Assembly (NCBI GenBank): GCA_023139575.1
Contig: JAGLNJ010000116.1
Coordinates: 1 to 51,573 of the forward strand
Source: Candidatus Omnitrophota bacterium
GTDB taxonomy: Bacteria > Omnitrophota > Gorgyraeia > Zapsychrales > JANLHA01
DNA length: 51,573 nucleotides
Reading direction: 5' to 3'
How positions within the stretch are numbered: position 1 is the stretch's first letter; the number at the start of each line of letters is the position of its first letter. Shown piece after piece: positions 3,672 through 49,363 of this stretch. Made by a program: the position numbers and the translations under genes. The notes below the pieces were generated by a model. It was given only the letters and a program-made list of their open reading frames with translations, ran no database searches and had not been told where the DNA came from.

Positions 3672-4130
3672 TTAATTAATAGTGACTATTTTGTAGTCAA
3701 GACTGAAAAATGAGGTTTTTTTGAGATGTCTTAGCAGAATGACCGTCATACAAAAAATGGAGATATCCATCACCAGGATCATCCAAAGGGGTACCCCGAT
3801 TAGATCGCCAAAACAGCCGCAATCCTCAATGGGGAGTTTGCGGATGATCGCTTGTGATACAGCGATAATAAAAGTGCCGGTGCAGGCCAACACGGCGAAT
3901 AATGATATCTTCGTCCATAAACCGGCAATGAGATAAACGCCTGTCAAGAATTCAAGCAAAGGAAAAATGCTGGCCGCGATATATTCCAATGAGCCATGAG
4001 GAAGCATGTCATAGCCCTGAATGACATAGAGAAAATTCTGCCGGGGCTGTATGATCTTCTCAAACCCGGAAACAAGAAATATGGCGCCGATAATAAACCG
4101 GGATAAAAAGAAAACGTTAATTTTTTTCAT
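3672..4130 (-). CDS. MauE/DoxX-family redox membrane protein
   Basis: RFIIGAIFLVSGFEKI start, about four TM helices, DCGCFG motif. Confidence 0.85.
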   Translation of the reverse strand: MKKINVFFLSRFIIGAIFLVSGFEKIIQPRQNFLYVIQGYDMLPHGSLEYIAASIFPLLEFLTGVYLIAGLWTKISLFAVLACTGTFIIAVSQAIIRKLPIEDCGCFGDLIGVPLWMILVMDISIFCMTVILLRHLKKTSFFSLDYKIVTIN

Positions 4131-4773
4131 CTTTTGGGGCTTTCGTCGGGATTCCTAAAATCTTTTCTAATTCCTTTTTAATATTACCTGAGCCCACAAC
4201 CATTTCACCATTAAGAAAATAGGTCGGGGTAGCCCGCACGCCCAACTTCTTGCCGGCATCCTTTTCTTGAAGGACGGTTAATTCGGCTTCAGAGGATTCC
4301 ACGCATACTTTAAATTTCTCCATGTCCAACTGCATTTGCTCAGCCTGGCCCAACATTTTTGCCACTGGGCTAATGCTACGGCTAATCACCCTTGCATTTT
4401 CAAATAAATAATCATGGTAGGCCCAAAATTTCTCCTGCTTGGCAGAGCATTCGGCATAAGTCGCCATTTTAACGGCATACGGGTGCAGGCTGGGCAGCGG
4501 GTAATGGCGGTAGGTCAAAAAGATTTGGTCGGAATAAAGATTCATAAACTCATGCAGGACATTAGCCCCTACAGAGCAGGCCGAACATTGGAAGTCAGTA
4601 TACTCAACAATCTTTATCCCGGCATCGGGATTGCCTTTGGACTTCTTATTCTCTAAAATAAGCTTATGCCCTTTGCCGTAAAAACCCGTTATCCAACGAC
4701 CGCCAAAAATGGCCATAACGGAAAGGGCTAAAACAATAATTGTGGCGATTTGTCTGGTCATCTTAATTTTCAT
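4117..4773 (-). CDS. DsbA-family thiol:disulfide oxidoreductase, membrane anchored
   Basis: KGNPDAGIKIVEYTDFQCSAC, YRHYPL, GVRATPTYFLNG. Confidence 0.9.
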   Translation of the reverse strand: MKIKMTRQIATIIVLALSVMAIFGGRWITGFYGKGHKLILENKKSKGNPDAGIKIVEYTDFQCSACSVGANVLHEFMNLYSDQIFLTYRHYPLPSLHPYAVKMATYAECSAKQEKFWAYHDYLFENARVISRSISPVAKMLGQAEQMQLDMEKFKVCVESSEAELTVLQEKDAGKKLGVRATPTYFLNGEMVVGSGNIKKELEKILGIPTKAPKDEKN

Positions 4774-4892: not shown

Positions 4893-5735
4893 ATGAGAAA
4901 ATATCGTAATATAATCAAAATCTTATCCCTATCACTGCTGATCTTCTCGCTTACACTATTCATCAATTCAAATACAGACCAGAACTATCCAGCAGAAATG
5001 AGCGGACTTTGCCTTGATGTCCTGCCACAGGCCGGGCATTGCAGCAAAGTTAACACTCCCTTTGTTCATTACAAAGGATGGGAAACGGACATGCAGACCG
5101 GTAAAGACTCTTTATCCGGCATCGCCTTTTTTACCACAGAACTCGCCCCGGATATTAAAGGTTACGGCGGTCCCATAAAAATATTAGCAGGCCTAGACAC
5201 CAAAGGACGGCTGACAAAAATCAAGATCATCGAGCATGCTGAAACAGGTTCATTCATTAAAAAGATGGATAATTTCATCACTCAGTTTGAAGGCAAGAGG
5301 TTTAATGACCCTTTTCAATTGGGAAAAGATATCGACGGCATAACAAAGGCGACTGTATCCAGCGAGGCAATAACAAAGGCTTTGTATTTAAGCCTGCGGA
5401 AAGCCGTACCTTTGCTTGAAAAAAGACACGACAGATCAAAAAAAACCTTCACGCATCGAAAAATATGGATTGTTCCTATTATTATTTTGTTTTTCTTATT
5501 CATCTGGTCTTTTGATTTAAGTAAAAAAATAACTTTTATTTTCTTTATCGTCGGCATCCTTCTATTTGGGGTTTTGGTTACGTCTTTTAATGATTCTCCT
5601 CCCGTATCATTAAAAGAAACTACCCCTGCCCAGTCGTCTTCAAAATCATCAAAAGATGCCGCCGCGCTCAAGAAGATGCTGAACGAAAAGGGCATTAAGC
5701 CACACCCTGCAAAGTACTGGAAGGAAATACATTGA
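4893..5735 (+). CDS. Membrane-anchored FMN-binding (flavinylation) domain protein with C-terminal TM pair and PAKYW tail
   Basis: KGYGGPIKILAGLD, HAET and DIDGITKATVSS match the FMN_bind motif of RnfG/NosR; N-terminal anchor and two C-terminal hydrophobic helices. Confidence 0.85.
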   Translation: MRKYRNIIKILSLSLLIFSLTLFINSNTDQNYPAEMSGLCLDVLPQAGHCSKVNTPFVHYKGWETDMQTGKDSLSGIAFFTTELAPDIKGYGGPIKILAGLDTKGRLTKIKIIEHAETGSFIKKMDNFITQFEGKRFNDPFQLGKDIDGITKATVSSEAITKALYLSLRKAVPLLEKRHDRSKKTFTHRKIWIVPIIILFFLFIWSFDLSKKITFIFFIVGILLFGVLVTSFNDSPPVSLKETTPAQSSSKSSKDAAALKKMLNEKGIKPHPAKYWKEIH

Positions 5736-6709
5736 AAACGATAGAATGCACATTATGCCCCCGCCATTGCCGCCTGAAAGAAGGTGAACGGGGCAATTGC
5801 CGGGTACGCGTTCATCTCGACGGCAAGTTGCAAACCCTGGTTTATGGCAATCCCTGCTCCGTCCATGTCGATCCGATCGAGAAGAAGCCGGTCTTCCATG
5901 TCCTGCCCGGTTCCGCCGCTTTTTCAGTAGCAACAGCGGGATGCAACCTGCATTGTAAATATTGTCAGAACTGGCAAATCTCCCAACGAGCCCCGGAGGA
6001 AACAACTAATATTGATCTCCCGCCACAGGCCCTTGTGGCCAATGCCTTAAAATACAATTGTCGCAGTATCGCTTACACTTATACCGATCCCGTTATTTTT
6101 TATGAATATGTCTTAGACTCAGCCAAAATCGCTCACAGTCAAAACTTACTCAACATTATGGTCTCCGCCGGATACATTGAACAGGATCCCCTACTTGAAC
6201 TCTGCCCTCACATCGACGCCGCTAACATCGATTTAAAAGGCATTACAGATGATTACTATAGAAGAATGAGCGACGCCACCTTAAAACCAGTATTGGATTG
6301 CATTCAAACCATGAAAAAACAAGGCGTGTGGGTAGAGCTGACAAACCTGATCGTTCCCACGTGGAATGATGGCGAAAAAGATATCCGCGCGCTGTGCCGC
6401 TGGATCGTTGATCACCTCGGGCCGGACGTGCCTTTACATTTTTCCCGCTTCTGGCCGCAGCATCAACTGAAGAACCTTCCTCCCACGCCAGTCGAAACCT
6501 TAAGCCTGGCCTGGGACATCGCTAAAACGGAGGGCCTGCATTATGCTTATGTGGGCAATATCCCGGGACACGACGGCAACAGCACCTTTTGCCCCCATGA
6601 CAACAAACTATTGATCAAGCGTATCGGCTATCGAATTTTGGAGAATCACATTGAAGATGGGAAATGCAAATATTGCTCCCACAAAGTGCCTGGCATCTGG
6701 AAAATATAA
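5732..6709 (+). CDS. amrS: AmmeMemoRadiSam system radical SAM enzyme (N-terminally short)
   Basis: CTLCPRHC...GNCRVR, VDPIEKKP, GCNLHCKYCQNWQISQ, YTYTDP, LHFSRFWP, YVGN, C-terminal Cys pairs; TTG start overlaps upstream TGA, SD AAGGA. Confidence 0.93.
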   Translation: MKTIECTLCPRHCRLKEGERGNCRVRVHLDGKLQTLVYGNPCSVHVDPIEKKPVFHVLPGSAAFSVATAGCNLHCKYCQNWQISQRAPEETTNIDLPPQALVANALKYNCRSIAYTYTDPVIFYEYVLDSAKIAHSQNLLNIMVSAGYIEQDPLLELCPHIDAANIDLKGITDDYYRRMSDATLKPVLDCIQTMKKQGVWVELTNLIVPTWNDGEKDIRALCRWIVDHLGPDVPLHFSRFWPQHQLKNLPPTPVETLSLAWDIAKTEGLHYAYVGNIPGHDGNSTFCPHDNKLLIKRIGYRILENHIEDGKCKYCSHKVPGIWKI

Positions 6710-6742
6710 TTGAACTAAACTATGTCTTGGAGGAACCAACCT

Positions 6743-6913
6743 ATGCTAAAAAATAAAATGAACAGAAAAGAATTCTTAGGCCGTGTGGCTCTGTTTGTCT
6801 CCGGAATCGCCTTGCTCCCTTTTCAGAAACTTTTCTCCCATCCAAAAGGAATAAAAAGAAGCCATATTAAAGAAGCCAAATACTTCCGTTCCGGCGATCA
6901 CCTGGCGGGGTAA
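6743..6913 (+). CDS. 56-aa peptide with Tat-like signal (NRKEFL) and C-terminal KEAKYF motif
   Basis: Strong SD GGAGGA 8 nt before ATG 6743; MNRKEFLGRVALFVSGIALLPF hydrophobic segment; lies directly after amrS. Confidence 0.7.
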   Translation: MLKNKMNRKEFLGRVALFVSGIALLPFQKLFSHPKGIKRSHIKEAKYFRSGDHLAG

Positions 6914-6960
6914 GACCAGGATTTTCCTGACTCCAAGGGTTATCGAACAGCCCTCAAGTC

Positions 6961-7413
6961 TTAAGGACACGCTCCCAATGAGGAAAACACCACCGTCCCG
7001 CATAAAGATGTCCCGGTATTCGTATCATATAACAATTCAATTTTGCTGCTGCCGTCACCGCCATCGACGGCATTTCTCGTAGCTACAACGGTGAATGAAT
7101 ATGTCGGGGGAACCCATCCACCATTAGTCGTAACACCAAAAGCATAAGCGAAGCGCCTTGCGGGATTGTCATCAGGATTTTCAACATCCAAGTCCGCCAT
7201 GATAACACAGCCGGCATCAAGCCCCGAATTCATGATCACACAGCGATTAACTGAATCACGAACAATCTTTAAGTTAGTAACCGCCTCCACATTCTTGGAA
7301 AACTCCACCATACTGAAGAACCGGGGCAAAGCCAATGAAGCCAGCACAGCAACAATAATAATAACAATGATAAGTTCTAAAAGCGTGAAACTTTTGAGGT
7401 TTTTCTTTAACAT
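6961..7413 (-). CDS. Type IV pilin-like protein (prepilin N-terminal cleavage/methylation domain)
   Basis: MLKKNLKS|FTLLELIIVIIIVAVLASLALPRF with E5 and P22; C-terminal Cys pair. Confidence 0.92.
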   Translation of the reverse strand: MLKKNLKSFTLLELIIVIIIVAVLASLALPRFFSMVEFSKNVEAVTNLKIVRDSVNRCVIMNSGLDAGCVIMADLDVENPDDNPARRFAYAFGVTTNGGWVPPTYSFTVVATRNAVDGGDGSSKIELLYDTNTGTSLCGTVVFSSLGACP

Positions 7414-9983: not shown

Positions 9984-12275
9984 CTAAAGCAGCAACAAAA
10001 CCGCGAAATTAATCGCCGCGCAGAAATATACTACCGCATTTATGCCGAGAAGAGGAACCAGAACGGCTCCCGTCACCAACGCGCCAATTGTCGCTCCGGA
10101 AACATCCATCGCATAAAGAAAACCGGCATTTTTGCTCGCAGACCCGCCCTTATTAATATCAGCTTCAAAGGCCTCCCCCCGGATACAAACAGCCAGGGGA
10201 TACTGCAGCCCGCCGATAAAACCGGCGATAATCGGTAAAGACGCAAAGACGCTGGCAAAGAAGGCGCTGGAAAATATCTCCGATCCGACATGTTGAAAAT
10301 AAACAAAAAACACCGGCAGTAATAACGGATACAAACAGATACTCCATTGCGTCCATTTATATATTTTAACTAATTTCTTTTTCTTTTCAATAGAGGGTAG
10401 AGGCAAAATACTCCTTATTAATTTCCGGGCAAACAGCGTCCCCAAGGCCAAGCCCGACATGAATGAGGCCATGATGAAACCGATTTTATAATACGCATAA
10501 CCATAGAGAGCTTGAAAGGACAGAATAATCACAATTTGAAATATGACTTCGGAAAATCCGGTTGTCATAATTGATAAGGTTATAGGCGAGAACGGCCTCC
10601 TTTTCCTTAAAAGCCATCCACCAACAAGCACCACCAAGGGCACAACCAGTAAATGTTTGAATCGCAACCAGCTGATTTTATGAAACACATCTTTAAATCC
10701 CTGATTGAAATGCGTCGACCATAAAACAATATCAAAGAGATAAGCGACAGGTTTCGCGTCGGTATTTATACGCCCCGGAGTTTGCAATACATCATTAATA
10801 TAATCCATTCTGTCGGGGCTCATGCGATAAGAAAAATAATATTCCCTGACATAACGTGTTTCCACCCCCCACCTTTCCAGGCTCCGGGTAAAAATATCGA
10901 TATTAATGTTCAACCCTTCCGGGTCTCTGGAGGCCAGAAAGATATGCGTATCCCCCGGTATAGACCGAACGTCAGGAAACACTTGCTTTAAAGTTGAATT
11001 GATCGAACGCAGAAATTCTTTTGTTTCTTTATTTAAATAATTCTCCGACGACGAAACGCTCAAAGCCATTATCCCTTGCGGCTTGAGGACACGAAAAGTT
11101 TCTTTGAAATATTCCAAAGTATAATAACGGTTGATCAAAGCCGTAATGGGATCACCCAAATTGACTATAACGACATCAAAAAGGGGAGCGTCTCTTCTTT
11201 TAATAAACTGACGGGCATCTGTGATGATGGTTTCAACACGTGGATCGTTTAAAGGGGCGACCACATCAGACGGCATATATTTTTGAGCCAAATCAATGAC
11301 TTTCCCGTCAAGTTCGATATAAGTCACTTTGATATCAGGATATTTAAGAATTTCCTTAATACTGCCATCTAGACCGCTGCCAATCAGCAAGACATGACGC
11401 GGGCGGGGATGTGCGTGTGCCAACATGGCATAATGCACGCCTTCTTCGCTGCTCAAATCATCCTTGGTAGCAAAAGACAATAAGCCGTTTTCATAAAGTT
11501 GATAGGTGTCTTTGAGTTTCGTGATCGTGATATTGCCGTATATCGATTCCGCTGAACTAACAACCTCCAGCCCCTCCCAACGTTTGTCCCGTGACCACTC
11601 ATCAGCCCATCGCAAAAATCCTGAGGCATAACATAAGAATACAATGATCAACTCTCCCAAAATAATGAAGGTGCGCGCTTTTCTTTTGACGAACAGCAGA
11701 ATTAAAACTAAAAAGACTAATGCGCATAGAAAAAACACAATAGAAAAAGCGCTAAAAAGTTTTATTAGAAATGCAGAAAAAATTAACCCGCCAATACCGC
11801 CGCCTATTGCCTCCCAAAGATAAACAGACCCTGCCCCCATGACAACAGCTTCCTGTTCTCGGCCTTCTTCCTTATATCGGCAGATAAGGGTAAACAAACC
11901 GCCAATAACCATTGTTAACGGCGCCAGCAGTAAAAAGGACAGCGCCGTCATGGGGATGATGCCCATAATCTCCCCTGTTTGAATATGCATAAAATTGTTC
12001 ACGAGACGAGAACTAATGACGGTGGCGGGCAGGAAAATAATAAAAAGAAAAAAAAGAATGGCGATAATATTCCTGGGGCACCGGACGTTTTGGATAAATG
12101 AGCTGGCGCAAAAATTTCCCATCGCTACCCAAAAGAGCCACGCCGCCAAAATCACCGCGTAAACCAACTCATTACCATAGAATACACTGACCAATTCCCT
12201 CATCAGGACAACTTGGCTCAGCACAGAAGAAAAACCTAAAAGAAAGGCCATGAGTTTTGATTTATTTTTCCGCAT
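9984..12275 (-). CDS. Polytopic membrane protein with central spermidine-synthase-like SAM-binding domain
   Basis: QVVLMRELVSVFYGNEL TM block, ESIYGNI, VLLIGSG, IELD, DARQF, YTLEYF, second TM block. Confidence 0.85.
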   Translation of the reverse strand: MRKNKSKLMAFLLGFSSVLSQVVLMRELVSVFYGNELVYAVILAAWLFWVAMGNFCASSFIQNVRCPRNIIAILFFLFIIFLPATVISSRLVNNFMHIQTGEIMGIIPMTALSFLLLAPLTMVIGGLFTLICRYKEEGREQEAVVMGAGSVYLWEAIGGGIGGLIFSAFLIKLFSAFSIVFFLCALVFLVLILLFVKRKARTFIILGELIIVFLCYASGFLRWADEWSRDKRWEGLEVVSSAESIYGNITITKLKDTYQLYENGLLSFATKDDLSSEEGVHYAMLAHAHPRPRHVLLIGSGLDGSIKEILKYPDIKVTYIELDGKVIDLAQKYMPSDVVAPLNDPRVETIITDARQFIKRRDAPLFDVVIVNLGDPITALINRYYTLEYFKETFRVLKPQGIMALSVSSSENYLNKETKEFLRSINSTLKQVFPDVRSIPGDTHIFLASRDPEGLNINIDIFTRSLERWGVETRYVREYYFSYRMSPDRMDYINDVLQTPGRINTDAKPVAYLFDIVLWSTHFNQGFKDVFHKISWLRFKHLLVVPLVVLVGGWLLRKRRPFSPITLSIMTTGFSEVIFQIVIILSFQALYGYAYYKIGFIMASFMSGLALGTLFARKLIRSILPLPSIEKKKKLVKIYKWTQWSICLYPLLLPVFFVYFQHVGSEIFSSAFFASVFASLPIIAGFIGGLQYPLAVCIRGEAFEADINKGGSASKNAGFLYAMDVSGATIGALVTGAVLVPLLGINAVVYFCAAINFAVLLLL

Positions 12276-48613: not shown

Positions 48614-49363
48614 TTACTTAAGATTCCGATCTCTTTTTTTCTCAATAAAGGCCGCCAAGATGATCCCCACTTCATAAAGGAGAAACATCGGCACGGCAAA
48701 AACCATCATGTTAACTAGATCCTGTGTCGGGGTAATGACTGCGGCGATAATAAGAATGATCAATAAGGCATACTTTCTTTGTTTTTTGAGCATAGCCGTC
48801 TTAATCATCCCCACTTCGGTTAACAAGCCAATGATAATAGGGATCTCAAAAATCACGCCGCCGATCAGCATGAAGGCCCCAAAAAAAGAAATATATTTGG
48901 CAATAGTAATATTGGGTGTCGCGACACCCTGACCGAAAAAAAGCAAAAACTTTAGTGCTGCGGGTAAGGCTATAAAATAGGAAAAATTAAGTCCCGCAAT
49001 GAAACCCAACATAGCCAAAGACATCCAAAAATAGGTGTTAGCCTTCCCTTTAGATGAAACGGCCGGTTCTATAAACTTCCAGGATTGATATAAAATAATC
49101 GGAAAGCAAATAAAAAACGCTGAAAGCAAGGACACTTTAATATAAGCCACAAAAACTTCCGAGGGCGTGATAAAAATAAGCTCGTCAACCATACCGTTGA
49201 TCGGCCGTTTAGCCAGAGACATAATCTTGTGCCCCTGTGAGAACATCACAATACCTGCAATAAGGAGGAATCCCAAGCATACCAGAAGACGTCGACGCAA
49301 TTCTTCCAAATGGCCGATAAAATCTAATTTCTGAGACTCCGGAGGGTATAAATCATTCATCAT
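48614..49363 (-). CDS. tatC: Twin-arginine translocase subunit TatC
   Basis: HLEELRRRL, YQSWKFIEP, FEIP, AAVITPTQD, PMFLLYE. Confidence 0.95.
   Translation of the reverse strand: MMNDLYPPESQKLDFIGHLEELRRRLLVCLGFLLIAGIVMFSQGHKIMSLAKRPINGMVDELIFITPSEVFVAYIKVSLLSAFFICFPIILYQSWKFIEPAVSSKGKANTYFWMSLAMLGFIAGLNFSYFIALPAALKFLLFFGQGVATPNITIAKYISFFGAFMLIGGVIFEIPIIIGLLTEVGMIKTAMLKKQRKYALLIILIIAAVITPTQDLVNMMVFAVPMFLLYEVGIILAAFIEKKRDRNLK

Follow-up and report, generated by a model that had tools for sequence, protein, structure and literature searches.

The AmmeMemoRadiSam-type radical SAM enzyme (AmrS) encoded in the window (the whole stretch of DNA analysed, 51,573 nucleotides) is produced without the first β-strand of its family, and a matching strand motif stands at the C-termini of the products of both flanking genes, an FMN-binding membrane protein upstream and a 56-aa peptide with a Tat-type signal downstream. 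We give a little better than an even chance to the reading that the three genes make up one enzyme in pieces, whose Tat peptide exports it and whose upstream tail docks it to a flavin donor. The features referred to below are as follows (window coordinates).

4893..5735, + strand: FMN-binding membrane protein, 280 aa (PF04205 match, hydropathy)
5703..5732, + strand: putative upstream donor tail HPAKYWKEIH, homologous to AmrS family profile positions 1-10
5721..5735, + strand: junction, with Shine-Dalgarno sequence AAGGA (5721-5725) and TTGA stop/start overlap (5732-5735)
5732..6709, + strand: AmrS core, an AmmeMemoRadiSam-type radical SAM enzyme without its first strand; 325 aa, start codon TTG (TIGR04337)
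6729..6733, + strand: Shine-Dalgarno sequence GGAGG, 9 nt 5′ of the ATG at 6743
6743..6913, + strand: putative free-standing Tat-signal escort peptide, 56 aa (family profile, complex prediction)
6761..6778, + strand: Tat-type motif N-R-K-E-F-L (family consensus RRxFLK)
6869..6910, + strand: putative downstream donor segment KEAKYFRSGDHLAG, with family-invariant C-terminal Gly (logo, complex prediction, cis register)
9984..12275, − strand: spermidine-synthase-like polytopic membrane protein, 763 aa (PF01564), a convergent neighbour
48689..49312, − strand: TatC, context (PF00902, 191 bits)

Junctions and conservation of the split genes

The upstream ORF (4893-5735, 280 aa) ends in ...GIKPHPAKYWKEIH, and its TGA stop codon (5733-5735) overlaps the TTG start codon of the AmrS ORF (5732-5734), with AAGGA located 6 nt 5′ of this start. 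The small ORF, whose likely start is the ATG at 6743 (the longest possible ORF begins at 6722), ends in ...HIKEAKYFRSGDHLAG. The initial annotation had reported a strand motif at both C-termini, and this is correct: in the six-frame translation of the whole window (~103,000 positions, 889 open frames of at least 30 aa), the regular expression [EP]A[KR][YH][YWF] has just two matches, one in the C-terminal 16 residues of each ORF that flanks AmrS. Such a coincidence is far beyond chance.

It was also proposed from the TTGA overlap and the Shine-Dalgarno sequence that the upstream junction reflects translational coupling. One can argue instead that 4893-6709 is really a single fused gene, interrupted by an indel that arose in assembly or sequencing, and that the small ORF is there by chance; a one-nucleotide change at 5730-5735 would join the frames, and one relative (L022/L034) does carry a 773-aa fusion of anchor and enzyme. 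However, every one of the 16 orthologous loci from related genomes (63-75% identity) has the same three parts, and their junctions differ. At each of them AmrS has its own ATG 3-8 codons 5′ of the first Cys, the upstream ORF ends in the tail motif, whose pattern G[LIV]xPx[EP]Ax[YHF]W is kept throughout, and a downstream Tat peptide of 50-59 aa follows; N-terminally short AmrS genes in other genomes are indeed flanked by motif-ending ORFs, a point that the initial annotation had proposed to check. At four of these loci the tail ORF shares the reading frame of AmrS and is separated from it by a stop codon; at 11 it lies in another frame, and at one it is located 145 nt upstream. The region 5300-7000 is free of indels in contigs from four runs (one study), and contig X4, a variant with three substitutions, spans the junction between the upstream ORF and AmrS. 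Together with the family of 169 clusters to which the small ORF belongs, these results leave the broken-gene explanation with practically no probability. We conclude that the upstream junction is a real coupling of two genes and not a frameshift.

Two candidate explanations were rejected in this way: a frameshift or assembly error, on account of the 16 split orthologous loci and the indel-free contigs, and a chance origin of the small ORF, on account of its 169-cluster family and its fixed register relative to the cis forms described below. At seven or more loci (at least L048, L053, L061, L064, L069, L082 and L090) the Tat peptide is present and no tail is visible, so the split does not depend on a tail. 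The spermidine-synthase-like neighbour, 46% identical to its counterpart in L030, is conserved beside the module in relatives.

The missing strand and its counterparts in cis

AmrS of the window begins with (M)KTIECTLCP and, in agreement with the initial annotation, carries no N-terminal strand motif. It matches TIGR04337 with 386 bits (E 1.3e-115, curated cut-off 220), and the alignment covers profile positions 11-334 of 349; positions 1-10, which form the first strand, are absent. In cis relatives the match begins at position 2, and in one canonical paralogue at position 4. The radical SAM motif CxxxCxxC is found as CNLHCKYC at residues 71-78, with C71, C75 and C78 invariant in 17 of 17 orthologues; the Pfam Radical_SAM match has an E value of 7.5e-16, and mean column identity over the 17 orthologues is 75%. 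The sole match among solved structures is PFL activase (27.7 bits, aligned along the radical SAM core), and none of them provides a template for the N-terminal sheet. Glycyl-radical activases are distant relatives of AmrS.

Many relatives keep on the enzyme itself what the window's AmrS lacks. Among the 80 best loci elsewhere, 42 encode an enzyme with an RR signal and the strand in cis, and another 13 one with a different hydrophobic N-terminus (no RR motif) and the strand. In total, 55 of the 80 relatives have the strand motif on the enzyme itself, with constant spacing to the first Cys. These cis forms are 49-57% identical to the window's AmrS core. The canonical, cytoplasmic paralogues found in related genomes carry no signal, and their strand is in cis. 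A profile built from the free peptides matches 25 of the 42 RR cis N-termini at E ≤ 0.001, end to end and in one fixed register, with the first Cys at profile position 55, i.e., two residues past the peptide end, in all matches that reach the strand segment. Alignment of the tails with full-length AmrS N-termini, which the initial annotation had called for, leads us to regard both as homologous to the N-terminal strand of full-length enzymes.

The cis forms carry one strand only. Tail ORFs were found beside none of 13 of them, and three unconvincing matches to the regular expression were obtained among 42. The fully fused relatives (L021/L035 and L022/L034) have the strand of the anchor in cis and lack a downstream Tat peptide. 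Text searches of the literature returned no paper on Tat-signal-bearing long AmrS forms.

The downstream peptide and its predicted complex with AmrS

Signal-peptide and topology calls were made by hydropathy, the positive-inside rule and inspection. The description of the downstream product as a Tat-signal peptide has to be amended: a Tat-type motif is there, but it reads N-R-K-E-F-L-G in the window, with R-K in place of twin arginine, and Pfam TAT_signal does not match the window's peptide. A profile search at E ≤ 0.001 revealed a family of at least 169 clusters of free-standing, unannotated peptides (11 of 12 database entries with a source name are labelled “hypothetical protein”). The best 150 of the 169 clusters are 34-92 aa long; 148 of these align to their very end, all 150 have the C-terminal Gly, and RRx[FLIW][LIFM] is present in 119, or in 141 in a relaxed form. 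The C-terminal logo is L-K-E-A-[KR]-[YFH]-Y-x-x-[AG]-D-x-L-A-G, with E, A and Y conserved. The uncharged core comprises 12-15 residues (median 13.5), and an AxA-type cleavage site is seen in only 13 of 142 family peptides. A word-indexed database search retrieved no proteins longer than 105 aa that match the peptide profile, which is weak evidence since the cis forms turned up later by another route.

Complex prediction for AmrS with the 56-aa peptide gave scores of 0.88, 0.87 and 0.88, the best of three controls reaching 0.00 (agreement between runs of 86% or more, partner pLDDT of 65 or higher). The score mark was calibrated on solved complexes, 58 of 80 of which reach it, and on mismatched pairs, of which 2 of 110 do. 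The predicted contacts, 76-77 of them confident, connect peptide residues 29-33 and 35-47 with AmrS residues 2-8, 32-40, 88-97, 124-128 and 150-156, the peptide's strand being modelled against residues 2-8 and 32-40. The Tat peptide is therefore predicted to bind AmrS through its strand, and the model favours, as far as this peptide is concerned, the docking strand supplied in trans that had been suggested. The high score may reflect what the predictor learned from full-length cis relatives, and would then back likeness rather than binding in the cell. The invariant C-terminal L-A-G of the peptide lies outside the confident predicted interface, and the docking model does not account for it.

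A small ORF adjoining a radical SAM gene could also point to a RiPP-like arrangement, in which the small peptide, possibly along with the tail, would serve the enzyme as substrate or as a precursor for a cofactor and would have no structural role. The C-terminal Gly of all 150 peptides, the conserved E, A and Y, the position of L-A-G outside the interface and the distant kinship of AmrS with glycyl-radical activases would all suit such a role. We consider it very improbable, because 55 of 80 relatives carry the motif in cis with constant spacing to the first Cys and the family profile includes it, because the peptide profile matches cis N-termini end to end, and because the motif is modelled as a strand at AmrS 2-8 and 32-40, away from the SAM-cluster region.

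We propose that the AmrS core has lost its own Tat signal and first β-strand, both of which many relatives keep N-terminally, and that the 56-aa peptide would be this detached N-terminus. In the cytoplasm, the KEAKYF strand of the peptide would complete the N-terminal sheet of the core, by then folded and loaded with its cluster, and the peptide's Tat signal would take the complex through the Tat translocase, a form of hitchhiking in which the escort is minimal. TatC is encoded within the window (PF00902, 191 bits).

The proposed flavin-binding partner and the cell envelope

The upstream protein was described as an FMN-binding membrane protein, which is borne out by an FMN_bind domain (PF04205, residues 90-164, E 1.2e-13) and three hydrophobic segments, an N-terminal signal-anchor and two later helices. 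The order of its parts is signal-anchor, FMN_bind, two hydrophobic helices, linker and C-terminal strand tail. Flavinylation motifs have the form [S/T]GA[S/T]; the window's flavinylation-type motif, DGITKAT, has T-K-A-T instead of the usual SGAT. At the loci where the motif was found (in L018 the flank is too short), the final Thr is present in 16 of 16; seven keep the Gly, and nine have Q, R or K at its position. Between the FMN motif and the tail there are no helices in five loci, two in the window and six in three loci, as counted by crude hydropathy, which returns odd numbers (5, 5 and 7) for three of 12 proteins. The 280-aa protein of the window has no NapH-like Fe-S membrane part (PF12801, CxxxCP motifs); such a part is common to most relatives, PF12801 being found in L030, L031 and L034. 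The FMN-binding domains of NapH-like proteins are described as extracytosolic (PMC8238504), and the predicted topology places the upstream tail on this same, FMN side of the membrane. The upstream-tail profile matches only 2 of 13 membrane-anchored cis forms at E ≤ 0.001, so the kinship of the tail with these forms rests mostly on architecture.

ApbE is encoded in the genome, as is one Memo-AMMECR1 fusion with a hydrophobic N-terminal leader. The latter is located on contig C191, away from AmrS (the assembly is fragmented into 204 contigs); in other split loci, e.g., L040, L042 and L045, it adjoins the enzyme. In one Chromatiaceae genome (G041) the Tat peptide is fused to mature Memo-AMMECR1, replacing the leader. 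Since the peptide is a separate ORF in four relatives of this genome (41 searched, 30 with a match), the fusion is a single case; the search yielded no other proteins with its N-terminus.

After export, according to the proposed scheme, the second copy of the strand, carried extracytosolically by the upstream protein, would occupy the same site on AmrS and tether the enzyme beside the covalently bound flavin, which would supply the electron for reductive SAM cleavage in the role of flavodoxin. We infer the exchange of donors from the fact that cis forms have one strand and that tail genes occur only beside strand-less enzymes; hand-over and electron transfer from FMN, like export itself, are inferred. 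Alternatively, the Tat peptide may stay bound after export as a permanent subunit, with the tail binding another AmrS or a second surface, or acting as a weak regulator. The loci with a Tat peptide and no visible tail indicate that the peptide alone can serve, and 76-77 confident contacts amount to a large interface, which argues against easy release. A separate site for the tail would not predict that tail genes accompany strand-less enzymes only; cis forms make do with one strand, and in the fused L021/L035 and L022/L034 the anchor's strand stands in cis and the Tat peptide is absent. We judge permanent binding to be possible but unlikely.

A further alternative is that the “signals” do no more than anchor to the membrane and that the enzyme always stays, and works, on the cytoplasmic face. 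SAM and Fe-S assembly are cytoplasmic, the N-termini of 13 of 80 relatives have no RR motif, and the window's own motif is R-K. Against this, RRxFL is present in 119 of 150 peptides and cis RR signals in 42 of 80 relatives, the tail comes straight after the extracytosolic FMN domain in five loci, the partner Memo-AMMECR1 proteins have N-terminal leaders, and an uncharged core of 12-15 residues is on the short side for anchoring a protein stably. We regard this alternative as improbable. The non-RR N-termini of the 13 relatives do not sit well with Tat-dependent export of a folded Fe-S protein. We also count the R-K and TKAT motifs of the window, the missing NapH-like part and the AxA site in 13 of 142 peptides against the scheme of export and hand-over.

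The proposed system shares elements with several known ones. The canonical AmmeMemoRadiSam enzyme (TIGR04337) has a similar core (386 bits) and a Memo-AMMECR1 partner that is also encoded in this genome; it differs in having the strand in cis and no signal, whereas the window's AmrS is without profile positions 1-10 and its partner is on another contig and bears a leader. Tat-signal-bearing long forms (42 of 80 loci) have the same signal, strand motif and register to the first Cys, but signal and strand are on the enzyme; here, they form a separate downstream gene, and the upstream membrane protein carries the strand once more. In chaperone-usher pili, a strand of another chain completes an incomplete sheet and a second donor may replace the first. 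The fold and proteins are unrelated to those considered here, the acceptor here is an enzyme, the exchange is conjectural, and the donors would be, unlike in pili, an export tag and an electron carrier.

Described Tat hitchhiker partners include the gamma subunit of Burkholderia FAD glucose dehydrogenase (PMC6719666) and hydrogenase small subunits HyaA/HybO (PMC10924467). As in these cases, a signal-less cofactor enzyme would be exported via a twin-arginine-bearing partner, to which binding is predicted here; however, the partners described there are folded subunits, whereas the present escort has ~50 residues comprising a signal, a linker and a strand of the cargo fold, and its export function is putative. 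In NapH-like/NosR systems (PMC8238504), too, an extracytosolic FMN_bind domain is part of a membrane protein, and ApbE is present in this genome; relatives of the window's protein add Fer4_5 (PF12801) and ferredoxin domains, the window copy is without the NapH-like part, and the partner here would be a radical SAM protein. The terms “Radical SAM”, “AMMECR1” and “Memo” have zero occurrences each in the main text of that paper. Our text searches found no paper describing a split AmrS or a detached Tat-peptide system.

Radical SAM enzymes are, to our knowledge, regarded as strictly cytoplasmic; none is known to us to work outside the cytoplasm, and SAM is not known to occur there. Only tentatively, and as rather doubtful, do we suggest extracytoplasmic radical SAM chemistry with a detachable 50-residue Tat escort, exchange of its strand for an identical one on a covalently flavinylated membrane protein, a link from the enzyme's cluster to the membrane electron pool and, in many phyla, a Memo/AMMECR1/radical-SAM system that would as a whole belong to the cell envelope. 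If true, the Tat-exported clade, secreted Memo-AMMECR1 and the flavin conduit would move radical SAM chemistry to the cell envelope and raise the question of the route by which SAM reaches it. Conservation of Memo and AMMECR1 extends as far as humans, and we are not aware of a known biochemical role for either; to know the compartment and physical partners of the bacterial system would narrow the search for a substrate. The split would represent natural fragment complementation for targeting, in which an export signal, as a gene of its own, completes the fold of its cargo, a principle that is directly testable and possibly reusable. One vacant strand site would thus serve first as a transport handle and second as an electrical plug.

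The split AmrS locus and its conservation

Three adjacent genes on the forward strand of the window make up the module:

4893-5735, +, FMN-binding membrane protein of 280 aa; FMN_bind (PF04205, E 1.2e-13) at residues 90-164
5732-6709, +, AmrS, an AmmeMemoRadiSam-type radical SAM enzyme of 325 aa; TIGR04337, 386 bits (cut-off 220 bits)
6743-6913, +, small ORF after AmrS; probable ATG at 6743, with GGAGG 9 nt before it

The first protein consists of a hydrophobic N-terminal segment, FMN_bind, two more hydrophobic helices and a hydrophilic linker leading to the C-terminus ...GIKPHPAKYWKEIH; a domain search found that it lacks a NapH-like module. The TGA stop of its ORF (5733-5735) overlaps the TTG start of the AmrS ORF (5732-5734), and AAGGA is located 6 nt upstream of this start. 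The window AmrS is aligned to TIGR04337 profile positions 11-334 only and is therefore without the first ten profile positions. The alignment begins at position 4 in the canonical paralogue of a related genome and at position 2 in two long forms, with the first Cys at profile position 14 in all of these. No Pfam or NCBIfam family was matched by the product of the small ORF, MLKNKMNRKEFLG...HIKEAKYFRSGDHLAG. The pattern [EP]A[KR][YH][YWF] occurs twice in the entire six-frame translation of the window, at the C-termini of the two ORFs flanking AmrS. The initial annotation, which had placed the motif at these two termini, was correct in every detail checked.

The window's genome, a 204-contig assembly, contains a single AmrS scoring above the family cut-off. 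When this genome and 40 relatives were searched (41 genomes), 16 orthologous AmrS loci at 63-75% identity were retrieved, as well as a second, canonical AmrS paralogue at 40-46% identity. Each of the 16 orthologous loci has the same three parts: AmrS begins at an ATG of its own, 3-8 codons ahead of the first Cys; the upstream ORF ends in G[LIV]xPx[EP]Ax[YHF]W...; and downstream comes an ORF of 50-59 aa that starts with an RRxFLK-type sequence and ends in ...EA[KR][YHF][YF]...LAG. The tail ORF is in the same frame as AmrS behind one or two stops in four loci, in another frame in 11, and ends 145 nt upstream of AmrS in one. Logan contigs from four runs, all belonging to a single study, span positions 5300-7000 with zero inserted or missing letters; three of these runs may be the source of the window DNA, and the contig of the fourth (X4), which carries three substitutions, bridges the junction. 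The differing junctions and own ATGs of the 16 split loci, together with the lack of an indel in the Logan contigs, exclude both an indel artefact and a programmed frameshift. The split is real, as had been proposed for the junction.

The canonical paralogues of related genomes carry the motif in cis (e.g., ...ARYWEKLDNGDIVCxLC). This signal-less paralogue, not found in the window's own, incomplete genome, adjoins an exonuclease-III-like gene in four of six loci (L023, L024, L025 and L027) and has Rnf-type membrane genes nearby in L024 and L025; by eye only, no AMMECR1 or Memo gene was noticed around it in L024-L029.

Origin of the two proposed donor strands

The downstream Tat peptide belongs to a family for which an exhaustive search of 1.84 billion representatives by profile returned 169 clusters at E <= 0.001, of which 64 remain at 1e-10. 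The 150 best-scoring members are 34-92 aa long, and the alignment reaches the last residue in 148. Their C-terminal logo is L-K-E-A-[KR]-[YFH]-Y-x-x-[AG]-D-x-L-A-G; Gly is conserved in all 150, Leu and the first Ala of the motif (the one after E) in 144 each, and the second aromatic Tyr in 138. The RRx[FLIW][LIFM] motif is present in 119/150 and an AxA-type site in only 13/142; the median length of the uncharged core is 13.5 residues. The named database holds 47 family members; a source name accompanies 12 of them, 'hypothetical protein' in 11 cases and 'twin-arginine translocation signal domain-containing protein' in one, and a single member has a precomputed TAT_signal match.

The 80 best loci from a wider scan of species-representative genomes come from many phyla and share 49-69% identity; those nearest to the window are from Omnitrophota MAGs.

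Classes of the 80 AmrS loci
RR-type signal and strand in cis: 42
Other hydrophobic N-terminus and strand in cis: 13
Short AmrS, peptide found with the free-peptide profile: 10
Short AmrS, no profile match: 10
Longer N-terminus, left unclassified by the regex: 4
Locus cut by contig end: 1

Inspection by eye revealed a divergent downstream RR peptide in eight loci classed as short without a profile hit or as unclassified, ending in ...EAMFWRK[LV]D (L048, L053, L061, L064), ...KW[AS]G (L069, L090) or ...LAG (L082, L101). No peptide was seen in L066 and L096, and in L060 the contig is cut directly after AmrS.

The free-peptide profile matched 25/42 cis-RR N-termini at E <= 0.001 (E-values for a database of 55 sequences). 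Every cis alignment that extends into the strand puts the first Cys at profile position 55, two residues behind position 53, the peptide's terminal Gly. Given this fixed register, the downstream peptide is the N-terminal part of a Tat-type AmrS, comprising signal and strand, in detached form.

The upstream tail has three types of carrier: a stand-alone single-pass protein of 65-96 aa, a preceding NapH/NosR-like protein with FMN_bind, Fer4_5 and ferredoxin domains, and a bare FMN_bind protein, as in the window. The anchor is fused onward to AmrS in two relatives, L035 (380 aa) and L034 (773 aa), neither with a Tat peptide downstream. Since the tail profile reaches only 2/13 membrane-anchored cis forms, the kinship of tails with these forms rests mainly on architecture.

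Several further features were observed. In the 13 relatives whose cis strand follows a hydrophobic N-terminus without RR (L050, L051, L055, L057, L077, L081, L085, L087, L094, L098, L103, L108 and L112; L098 has a lipobox-like LVTC), membrane crossing of a folded Fe-S domain is puzzling. Two cis-RR enzymes from Anaerolineae and Chloroflexia MAGs (L056, L100) have an insert between strand and first CxxC, with one CxxCH motif (CTSCH or CGDCH) followed by a second conserved YCH; CxxCH is the pattern of covalent heme c attachment and, if real, would be a further hint of extracytosolic location. L048, L053, L061 and L064, from Thermodesulfovibrionales/Nitrospiraceae MAGs, have a second type of free Tat peptide (...KEAMFWRK[LV]D) that is without the L-A-G extension; a leader-bearing Memo-AMMECR1 gene follows, and no upstream tail ORF is visible. 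The FMN protein of the window contains at 5330-5350 a flavinylation-type motif, DGITKAT (usual form SGAT), with matching sites in L005-L020; of the 16 loci in which the motif was found, nine have Q, R or K instead of its Gly (K in the window), and all 16 retain the final Thr.

Membrane side of the tail and genomic context

The positive-inside rule was used to orient the stand-alone single-pass tail proteins, whose N-terminal flank is mostly the more positive. Between FMN_bind and tail there are no hydrophobic helices in L013, L017, L040, L041 and L042, two in the window and six in L011, L020 and L038; a crude hydropathy count gives five in L012 and L039 and seven in L016. FMN-binding domains of NapH-like proteins are extracytosolic according to passages of PMC8238504. 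TatC is encoded within the window, and the genome also encodes ApbE. In the genome's Memo-AMMECR1 fusion, the Memo domain begins at residue 25 behind a hydrophobic leader, and a leader-bearing gene of this kind lies directly 3' of the Tat peptide in L040, L042, L045 and others. Four Chromatiaceae-related genomes have the order TM-tail protein, short AmrS, Tat peptide, Memo-AMMECR1. One Chromatiaceae MAG (L119, G041:C36, 1459-3249) encodes an in-frame fusion in which the Tat peptide (...LREADFYRPHDLAG) precedes mature Memo-AMMECR1 and takes the place of its leader; four relatives (L121-L124) encode them as separate ORFs. Together, these observations place the tail outside the cytoplasm and, we infer, the enzyme as well.

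Divergent from the module, window positions 3672-4773 (-) encode a MauE/DoxX membrane protein (PF07291) and a DsbA-like thioredoxin (PF13462), likely an envelope thiol-redox pair, which was not seen beside the module in the relatives' widened loci. A neighbour of the module in 6/6 widened loci is a polytopic membrane protein of 700-784 aa that contains a spermidine-synthase domain (PF01564); it is convergent in five and upstream on the same strand in L035:

window 9984-12275, -, 3 kb downstream of the module; 46% identity to the L030 protein
L030 9219-11573
L031 4793-7012
L032 9282-11582
L033 9333-11681
L034 8561-10663
L035 8040-10229

Since this fold class binds SAM-derived nucleotides, the neighbour might bear on SAM supply.

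Predicted binding and proposed strand exchange

Complex prediction was performed with the AmrS core and peptide residues 22-51 (alignments of 17 each). The complex scored 0.88, 0.87 and 0.88, against 0.00 for the highest-scoring of three controls; the score mark is attained by 58/80 solved complexes and 2/110 mismatched pairs. Runs had at least 86% contact agreement and partner pLDDT of at least 65. Peptide residues 36-40 are predicted to lie antiparallel to AmrS 33-38, and Y42 to R44 against AmrS 4-8 and 152-153; residues 48-51 (H-L-A-G) are outside the confident interface. No solved AmrS structure was found (the nearest, PFL activase, gave 27.7 bits), so recall of a solved complex is unlikely; full-length relatives may, however, have taught the model this arrangement. 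The prediction supports a fit of the peptide at the cis-strand position.

Each cis form has a single strand, and the split cores are without additional domains. Beside the 13 hydrophobic non-RR cis forms no tail ORF was found (0/13); beside the 42 cis-RR forms there were three regex matches, none in a G[LIV]xP context and two ending >600 nt upstream. By this distribution, both donors go with the vacant site. The peptide occurs without a visible tail in at least seven loci, which speaks against necessity of the tail.

In the proposed mechanism, the core would fold and get its clusters in the cytoplasm, where the Tat peptide would complete its N-terminal sheet and target it to TatBC. After transport, the strand of the FMN protein would displace this escort, and the tethered flavin would reduce the radical SAM cluster, which in the cytoplasm is reduced by flavodoxin. 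If the tail is extracytosolic and a core with a single site can cross only with the Tat peptide, the strand would have to be exchanged after export. The initial annotation had interpreted the missing strand as supplied in trans by both flanking proteins, and this is supported in part: the homology of both tails to the cis strand and the modelled fit of the Tat peptide agree with it, and exchange between the donors we only infer.

Among the full-text matches listed, mentions of AmmeMemoRadiSam were incidental, AMMECR1, Memo and radical SAM together retrieved only other systems, and radical SAM with Tat terms retrieved no exported radical SAM enzyme. The main text of the flavinylation survey PMC8238504 has zero occurrences of 'radical SAM', 'AMMECR1' or 'Memo'. 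Tat hitchhiking is known, according to passages in the respective papers, for the FAD glucose dehydrogenase gamma subunit (PMC6719666) and hydrogenase small subunits (PMC10924467). The AmrS system would be a new variant that combines hitchhiking with fragment complementation. If export is real, radical SAM chemistry would be located in the envelope.
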